Source of the DNA: Escherichia phage ECO103 4-12-1
DNA length: 64,000 nucleotides
Sequence record: OR844650
Strand: one strand, 5' to 3'
Shown piece after piece: positions 21,603-21,723 of this stretch (its first letter is position 1; every line of letters begins with the position of its first letter). The notes below the pieces were generated by a model, which was not told the origin of the DNA, made no database searches, and saw nothing but the letters and a program-made list of their open reading frames with translations. Both the position numbers and the translations under genes were made by a program.

Positions 21603-21630
21603 ATTATATCACATCGTTTCAACTTGTCAA
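21603..21630 (-). promoter_or_regulatory. sigma70-type promoter
   Basis: - strand reads TTGACA-N16-TATAAT with TGn extended -10. Confidence 0.55.
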
Positions 21631-21695
21631 TCACTTTTTTTCTTTTTTTTCAAACTCACATCTTGTGTCGCTTGAAAACTTTATGTCTGATGCTT

Positions 21696-21723
21696 ATTGT
21701 ATCACATCATTCTATCTTGTCAA
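21696..21723 (-). promoter_or_regulatory. sigma70-type promoter (tandem copy)
   Basis: - strand reads TTGACA-N16-TACAAT with TGn extension; direct repeat of the promoter at 21603. Confidence 0.5.

Follow-up and report, generated by a model that had tools for sequence, protein, structure and literature searches.

In the genome of Escherichia phage ECO103 4-12-1 (OR844650), from which a stretch of 64,000 nucleotides (nt) is analysed here (hereafter the window), two near-consensus sigma70 promoters, P1 and P2, follow each other on the - strand ahead of a gene for a MoxR-like AAA+ ATPase, and the question arises what such a pair does at this place. A sequence-only reading of the window had taken both, together with a perfect promoter at 51.3 kb, for early promoters of insulated units behind terminators, which would mark the ATPase gene and its VWA-like partner gene as well as a block of small genes as early functions. 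From our point of view another answer is preferable, to which we assign a probability of roughly 0.6, namely that P1 and P2 feed a terminator in the leader and would give rise both to short leader RNAs and to a read-through ATPase-VWA mRNA.

Tandem promoters ahead of the ATPase gene

P1 and P2 sit in a 313-nt gap between the gene for a hypothetical protein of 126 amino acids (aa) (22127..21747), the final member of a run of virion-protein genes, and the gene for the 441-aa ATPase (Table 1). The -35 hexamer is TTGACA (6/6) at 21723, at 21630 and, for the 51.3 kb promoter, at 51319. The -10 hexamer is TATAAT at P2 and at 51.3 kb and TACAAT (5/6) at P1, and the spacers measure 16 nt at P1 and P2 and 17 nt at 51.3 kb. 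Both P1 and P2 carry the TGn extension, in the form TGTGA, which the 51.3 kb site does not have. Sequences, coordinates and strand of these motifs stand as the sequence-only reading had given them, and so does its statement that the pair is a direct repeat, which extends over 48 nt at 71% identity with a period of 93 nt from start to start.

For comparison, the gap upstream of the ATPase gene was examined in 15 further phages. In the six Asteriusvirus lineages (the window, ph0011, fEgEco12, JNE01, A4 and UE-S1), P1 and P2 each match the consensus at 11-12 of 12 positions and have the TGn, while synonymous sites are only 55-84% identical between the compared lineages. RaK2 has a single 12/12 copy at this slot, orthologous to P2, and the spacers of relatives measure 16-17 nt. 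When nine promoter copies from five phages are aligned, TTGAC.A and ATGTG.TA.AAT are invariant and are accompanied by an upstream A-rich tract and a conserved CA.CA start block, with spacers that vary. The tract upstream of P1 is weakly kept in sequence (0.48-0.61) and A-rich in every lineage. Since the hexamers and the TG are kept while spacers and flanks drift, and since the sites are intergenic and aimed at the downstream gene, P1 and P2 are very probably functional sigma70-type promoters for the host RNA polymerase. The earlier claim of host polymerase use is further borne out by the clade itself: no phage RNA polymerase has been reported for RaK2-like phages, and the relative PA5oct is sensitive to rifampicin, depends on the host RNA polymerase and has promoters of the form TTGAC/TATAATA. 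A promoter map or transcript mapping for Asteriusvirus phages was not found in the literature. The composite TTGACA-N11-12-TGTGATATAAT is carried by at least 120 unrelated viral contigs and hence represents a generic strong extended -10 promoter and not a signature of the clade.

One could argue that such motifs are chance matches in AT-rich DNA without any function, as the genome has a G+C content of 34.6%, as loose promoter-like matches (at least 9 of 12 positions) are no commoner than in shuffled sequence, and as a perfect intragenic site at 22210 is not conserved but drops to 10, 9 and 8 of 12 in the three nearest lineages. However, TTGACA-N15-19-TAYAAT occurs four times in the window versus 0.59 expected (about 7-fold), a number that 0 of 100 shuffles reached, with all four sites on the - strand and three of them in intergenic DNA, which makes up 5.3% of the window (P = 6e-4). 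Sites with at least 11 of 12 matches number 14 on the - strand (2.6 +/- 1.5 in simulations) and one on the + strand, and six of these sites, P1 and P2 included, fall inside 1.2 kb, where simulations never gave more than two. This enrichment of exact sites and their intergenic concentration indicate that the promoter motifs are real and non-random. TTGACA itself is depleted on both strands (22 and 20 copies versus 37.5 expected under a first-order Markov model), which likewise speaks against chance and is consistent with selection against stray -35 elements, and the retention of the hexamers across the diverged lineages already contradicts this explanation, which we consider extremely improbable.

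Between 21846 and 22766 (- strand) there are another four to five sites close to the sigma70 consensus, which lie inside the genes 22127..21747, 22526..22131 and 23505..22528 and are aimed at the ATPase gene. As conserved promoters, those at 22210, 22766, 21874 and 21914 were rejected, given that they decay in relatives; GTGACA-N17-TATAAT at 22321..22293 stays at 11/12 as far as RaK2 and Munch, and coding constraint may account for this.

A different explanation would see in the repeats primarily the binding sites of a regulator, with the promoter-like hexamers incidental or secondary. A stretch of about 110 nt holds three direct copies of GATGTGA and an inverted one, TGTGA-N8-TCACA surrounds the -10 of P2, and the spacer part GATGTGA is conserved together with the hexamers. 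However, a TRTGn extended -10 accounts fully for the TGTGA. In fEgEco12, JNE01 and RaK2 the hexamers are retained although the inverted repeat decays in its right arm, and the composite motif is frequent in unrelated phages, so that we regard this explanation as very improbable. The perfect 7-nt inverted repeat GATGTGA/TCACATC flanking the -10 of P2 (21594-21615, - strand), of which GATGTGA has further copies at P1 and once between P1 and P2, could be an operator, a hairpin in the P1-derived RNA, or incidental.

Across genera, the ATPase-slot promoters share the TG-extended -10, whereas the -35 varies: Asteriusvirus and RaK2 have TTGACA, Munch has GGGACA, Hallingskeid TTGAGA, and GAP32, CBB, BF, Yen9-04 and XaC1 share TGAAAC(G/A). 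As such, one promoter slot has changed its -35 class between genera (TTGACA, GGGACA, TGAAACG). P2 itself was rejected as a member of the TGAAACG class, as the TGAAACG in its spacer lies only 6 nt from the -10 and thus has the wrong geometry, and TG[AG]AA[CT]-N16-18-TATAAT has no site in the window. GGGACA-N15-18-TAnAAT has four, versus 0.11 expected. Copies of the form GGGACA-N16/17-TGATATAAT lie at 18534-18561, 37543-37570, 48643-48670 and near 2053, all on the - strand, where TGATATAAT occurs nine times versus 1.4 expected. Since the copy after the VWA gene occupies the position where CBB lists Porf_218 (TGAAACG class), and since Munch has GGGACA at the ATPase slot, the GGGACA class may be the Asteriusvirus counterpart of the 'divergent' class of CBB and GAP32.

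A conserved terminator-like hairpin in the leader

The tandem promoters are separated from the ATPase start codon by a hairpin with a stability of -13.6 kcal/mol, which is followed by a T tract. Along the gene strand, the stop codon is followed in turn by the promoter(s), a short leader, the hairpin with its T tract and the ATPase gene. This order is found in 15 of 15 RaK2-like phages, and promoter, hairpin and ATPase gene still follow each other in this way in Xanthomonas phage XaC1, whose ATPase is only 54% identical; in PA5oct the order is the opposite. In the aligned stem, 97.6% of cells are paired (slid controls reach 20-54%), compensatory double changes are seen at two positions (GGAAC/GTTCC, GGCAC/GTGCC and AGCAC/GTGCT occur as variants), and RaK2 has a paired deletion. 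The TTTT run of the T tract is invariant across 14 sequences, and the tract is canonical in GAP32 and CBB and interrupted in the window. Earlier annotators, too, took the hairpin for a terminator, both in G17 and in CBB, where it bears the name Torf215; in public records it is marked only as the terminator of the upstream gene, or is crossed by a probably spurious antisense open reading frame (ORF).

Within Asteriusvirus, identity amounts to 0.80-0.98 in the leader, 0.93-0.98 in the hairpin and 0.88-1.0 in the post-hairpin part, versus 0.55-0.84 at synonymous sites, and the stretches before P1 and between the promoters are less well kept (0.48-0.76). An antisense ORF at 21540..21767 (+ strand; 75 codons from a TTG start, M2K_0554 in SHEFM2K) was rejected as the cause of this conservation, as neither its frame nor its length is kept in close relatives, and M2K_0554 is probably a spurious call. 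Given that leader and hairpin are more conserved than synonymous sites and the antisense ORF is not conserved, the strongest constraint in the gap falls on a non-coding transcribed element. In addition, no recognisable promoter between hairpin and ATPase ATG, and no equivalent of the weak site P3 of the window, was seen in GAP32, CBB, BF, Yen9-04 and XaC1, which implies that in these five phages the ATPase gene must be transcribed through the hairpin. Among the Asteriusvirus lineages P3 is 0.88-1.0 identical, and Hallingskeid shows TGGTATAAT at this position.

From the motifs, the duplication, the conservation, the covariation in the stem and the gene order, all of which are directly visible in the genomes, the following sequence of events can be proposed. 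P1 and P2 would represent a genus-wide tandem duplication of one strong sigma70-type promoter. In each copy an A-rich UP-like tract precedes a consensus -35, and the spacer of 16 nt is followed by a -10 hexamer that has the TRTGn extension and equals or nearly equals the consensus. Host RNA polymerase would start about 7 nt past each -10, i.e. near 21596 (P2) and 21689 (P1), and about 55 nt past the P2 start it would meet the hairpin with its interrupted U tract, where partial termination is most likely. The predicted leader RNAs would then measure about 104 nt from P2 and 197 nt from P1 (roughly 100 and 195 nt), whereas the fraction of polymerases reading through would produce the ATPase-VWA mRNA. 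The same hairpin would also stop late transcripts arriving from the upstream structural genes, and P3 may add basal transcription in Asteriusvirus.

Several points weigh against this reading. The start sites, the efficiency of termination, the read-through and the timing are inferred, with starts and termination being predictions only, and the 16-nt spacer is one below the optimum. The hairpin of the window has a structured loop of 21 nt and an interrupted U tract and is not listed by a simple terminator scan, for which reasons termination efficiency could be low. Furthermore, no conserved alternative (antiterminator) pairing was found across genera, the consensus fold keeping only the terminator, so that attenuation, if present, may be constitutive and not regulated. 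Lastly, the arrangement is not strictly invariant, because EJP2 has a promoter after its hairpin: in this phage (locus L013 of our comparison, 1837-2154) a promoter over the stop codon is followed by a hairpin, a second TTGACA-N17-TATAAT, a hairpin-free leader and the ATPase gene.

The main rival is a stand-alone small RNA gene, the main product of which would be a non-coding RNA of about 60-100 nt (or about 195 nt) that acts in trans or titrates a protein, with the ATPase expressed mainly from P3 or by late read-through. A strong promoter, a short unstructured 5' part and a terminator hairpin with a U tail are what such a gene would have; its transcribed part is more conserved than synonymous sites and includes two cross-genus blocks, AT(T/C)AAGA(C/G)A where the RNA is predicted to begin and AYGGAT ahead of the hairpin. 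The predicted lengths of 104 and 197 nt and the lack of a conserved ORF on either strand fit as well, Asteriusvirus lineages retain a separate TATAAT after the terminator, and with the GraL RNAs there is a precedent for leader terminators that yield RNAs with effects of their own. However, a search of Rfam (E <= 10) over 21300-21900 returned no credible family match but only sub-threshold eukaryotic miRNA/snoRNA noise, a search of the window for complements of the conserved 5' block gave nothing above chance and hence no target, and no second structure is conserved. Moreover, the five genera without a post-hairpin promoter require that the unit is also an mRNA leader, and the second AYGGATT sits past the T tract and thus outside the putative small RNA. 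We therefore hold this alternative to be unlikely.

A related idea is that the cassette serves RaK2-like jumbo phages as an RNA element devoted to regulation, whether as a small RNA or as an attenuator under protein control. The single-stranded AYGGAU motifs around the hairpin and the 5' block AUUAAGACA could then bind an RNA-binding protein, be it host CsrA-like or phage-encoded, and this binding would time the production of the virion-packaged AAA+ ATPase and VWA proteins; in Asteriusvirus the promoter would have been duplicated and shifted to the host sigma70 consensus to raise output. We consider such a dedicated element rather unlikely. Across genera, about 13 of 15 phages have the motif AYGGAT(T) both 12-22 nt before the hairpin and 5-8 nt past the T tract, in the window as ACGGAT at 21555-21560 and as ACGGATT at 21483-21489 (- strand), with the same positions in loci L006-L012, L017 and L018, and the columns of the downstream copy are at least 90% conserved. 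With their GGA, these sites resemble CsrA-type sites.

Other roles that the leader might have did not hold. A pairing of leader CCUUUU with AAAAGG of the Shine-Dalgarno (SD) sequence was seen in single-sequence folds and in Asteriusvirus and RaK2 only, not across genera; a leader peptide was dismissed, as the short leader ORFs differ in every genus and AYGGAT is ACGGAT in the window and has no start codon; and a reading of the post-hairpin TTTGCTTA of RaK2 and Munch as a T4 MotA box was set aside, since it stands 9 nt from the -10 both in RaK2 and in the window and is absent elsewhere.

The order of elements also bears on the sequence-only reading, in which P1 and P2 are plain early promoters, the hairpins only stop transcripts from upstream, and the ATPase-VWA pair and the small genes are early. 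Near-consensus sigma70 promoters with a UP-like tract are indeed the class that is assigned to early genes in CBB, and the hairpins would stop transcripts from upstream late genes. However, insulation in the way proposed is not supported, as at both the ATPase gene and 51.3 kb the promoter comes first and the hairpin follows on the transcribed strand, which places a terminator between the tandem promoters and the ATPase gene. In addition, five to six genera have a promoter of a different class at the orthologous position, and the ATPase is present in virions: it was found by mass spectrometry in those of phAPEC6 (gp265c, 49.5 kDa, 6 peptides), and the homologue in PA5oct is flagged as virion-detected, too. 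Early initiation at P1 and P2 by the unmodified host polymerase is plausible, but the protein is clearly there at late times. The assignment to an early module is as such unproven and in part contradicted, and as an account of the locus we consider it quite unlikely.

Table 1. Features at the ATPase and 51.3 kb loci (positions are those of the window).
Feature	Position	Strand	Remarks
A/T-rich UP-like tract before P1	21724..21746	-	Reaches the stop codon of the 126-aa gene
P1, distal tandem promoter	21696..21723	-	TTGACA (21723..21718), N16, TGn, TACAAT (21701..21696)
A-tract before the -35 of P2	21631..21653	-	GAAAAAAAAGAAAAAAAGTGA, UP-element-like; identity between lineages 0.65-0.91
P2, proximal tandem promoter	21603..21630	-	TTGACA, N16, TGTGA-TATAAT; 12/12 with TGn
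5' part of the predicted P2 leader RNA	21542..21596	-	Start block CATCAAGACA and ACGGAT motif
Leader hairpin, intrinsic-terminator-like	21501..21541	-	10-bp stem AAAGGAACTG/CAGTTCCTTT, structured 21-nt loop
Interrupted T tract after the stem	21491..21500	-	ACTTTTGCC; UUUACUUUU if basal A-U pairs open
P3, weak site overlapping the T tract	21475..21503	-	TTTACT-N17-TATAAT (10/12); holds second ACGGATT
AAA+ ATPase gene (MoxR-like, N4 gp24-like)	20108..21433	-	441 aa
Terminator hairpin between ATPase and VWA genes	20061..20093	-	Embedded TTGACA-N17-TATCCT (TGn)
DUF2201_N + DUF2201 (VWA-like) gene, ATPase partner	18609..20033	-	E = 2e-35 and 7e-21
True terminator-then-promoter junction	18534..18596	-	Hairpin 18596..18575, then GGGACA-N16-TGATATAAT 18561..18534
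Promoter at 51.3 kb	51291..51319	-	Perfect TTGACA-N17-TATAAT, without TGn
Terminator hairpin at 51.3 kb	51259..51289	-	AGAGAACTTC-ATAT-GGAGTTCTCT (51289..51266) and T7; onset 2 nt past the -10
139-aa gene downstream of the 51.3 kb promoter	50827..51246	-	Followed by i-/o-spanin genes and an HNH-like gene

The 51.3 kb site and the surroundings of both loci

At 51.3 kb the promoter had been placed immediately after a terminator hairpin, which does not hold: the hairpin has no T run on the + strand and acts on the - strand, where it lies 3' of the promoter. The predicted +1 (51285/51284) falls within the 5' arm of the terminator, and because this begins only 2 nt after the -10, transcripts of the promoter itself would be without most of the 5' arm and should pass. 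The full hairpin has -14.6 kcal/mol, whereas starts at +6/+7 leave only -3.5/-2.6 kcal/mol. A start at +4/+5 is possible, too, and speaks against passage, as the remaining stem of -8 kcal/mol might still terminate. Provided that the start is as predicted, on which this interpretation hinges, the site would be a more compact version of the ATPase locus, in which upstream transcripts meet the full hairpin and those of the promoter read on, and as such a space-saving means of closing one transcription unit and opening another. The unit includes the spanin genes and ends at a strong terminator (49469..49446) ahead of the small-gene block. The promoter thus does not mark that block as early, as had been claimed, and the two points add to those against early functions given above.

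Promoter and hairpin of the 51.3 kb site are kept in PBECO4-type phages and in UE-S1 (there with N16) and are absent in fEgEco12, where the gap measures 10 nt. A mosaic breakpoint at about 51348 precedes the -35 by 29 nt. Directly upstream, the window and slurp01 carry a nucleotidyltransferase gene (51432..52664); in SHEFM2K, PBECO4, 121Q and others, tail-protein and tail-fiber genes take its place. The cassette of promoter and terminator marks a module boundary. In the slurp01-type segment, a T4-late-like ATAAATACTCAA at 51382-51388 (- strand) comes close to a late-class example of CBB, and right after the nucleotidyltransferase stop codon there is a 9-bp inverted repeat GTATAATGG/CCATTATAC (51392-51420, - strand).

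True junctions in the order terminator, then promoter, were found in the window at 18.5 kb and 33.9 kb. A third geometry is seen between the ATPase and VWA genes: TTGACA abuts the terminator, the -10 lies within the 3' arm, and the predicted start falls into the T tract.

As to its source, the window stems from a jumbo coliphage of the genus Asteriusvirus, within the RaK2-like group (PBECO4/121Q/slurp01 type), and nearly all of its genes lie on the - strand from about 16 kb onward. SHEFM2K is 100% identical to it over 18000-26000, and PBECO4, 121Q, phAPEC6 and G17 are 99.4-99.9% identical; past 51348 the window tracks slurp01, not SHEFM2K. The annotators of RaK2 compare the ATPase/VWA pair to N4 gp24/gp25. 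The domain match of the ATPase to AAA reaches 21.3 bits (cutoff 21.2) and that to AAA_3 is sub-threshold (E = 0.007), and a search of the PDB with its sequence found no relative. In RaK2 (NC_019526, locus L006, about 1782-1850) the RefSeq start of the ATPase gene looks too far downstream, and an upstream ATG with the SD sequence AAAAGGAAAA gives an N-terminus that matches those of the other phages (MSKADQNDILNV...).

Relation to known systems

Taken by themselves, P1 and P2 are ordinary in kind, given that strong sigma70 promoters, their tandem arrangement and terminators within leaders are well known. The T7 promoters A1/A2/A3 and rrn P1/P2 are likewise several strong sigma70 promoters in tandem within 100-250 bp, with the same direction and A-rich upstream tracts; they are, however, not known to run into a terminator ahead of their first gene, nor to have arisen from one another by recent duplication.

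Within the clade, RpoD-like promoters with a UP-like element have been predicted earlier for CBB and are reported in the same work for GAP32 as well (Buttimer et al. 2017, PMC5259590). They resemble those of the window in that TTGAC(A/T) and TATAAT follow an A/T-rich tract, both sets being deduced from sequence; those of CBB cluster among small hypothetical genes taken as early, whereas those of the window lie among virion-protein genes. The TGAAACG class and a T4-late-like ATAAATA class have been reported for both CBB and GAP32, and the authors tie the TGAAACG class to DNA-synthesis genes and not to the presumed early region (PMC5259590). At the ATPase slot, CBB has a promoter of this class that its authors did not list, annotating only the terminator Torf215. 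The TGAAACG-N16-TATAAT promoters of GAP32, CBB, BF, Yen9-04 and XaC1 share with P1 and P2 the orthologous position and the extended -10 TGTG(A/G)-TATAAT and differ from them in the -35, which is TTGACA in the window.

These findings do not overturn current understanding. What they provide is a strongly constrained non-coding leader of about 160 nt, identified before a conserved, virion-associated ATPase/VWA pair, as well as predicted start sites that can now be tested, and the switching of the -35 class could help to decode how the clade schedules its transcription with the host polymerase. The practical value lies in annotation; the literature describes several Asteriusvirus phages as candidates for antimicrobial use or phage therapy.

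Among described cases, greA of E. coli comes closest, where a terminator in the leader downstream of P1/P2 releases the GraL RNAs (Potrykus et al. 2010, PMC2836576). In both systems two strong and close promoters are followed by an intrinsic terminator in the leader, with an imperfect U tract and a conserved stem. At greA, most transcription stops early and yields short RNAs, with the remainder giving mRNA (PMC2836576); termination and the short RNAs are demonstrated there and predicted here. The greA promoters overlap and use two sigma factors, in contrast to the tandem duplicates of one sigma70-type promoter with their 93-nt period in the phage; a further difference of the phage locus is that its hairpin also closes an upstream late gene block. 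As the promoter type had already been predicted for relatives, the new point is that these promoters would fire into a conserved terminator hairpin before the ATPase gene, and it is this leader terminator, with the unexplained motifs flanking it, that we consider the most interesting element.

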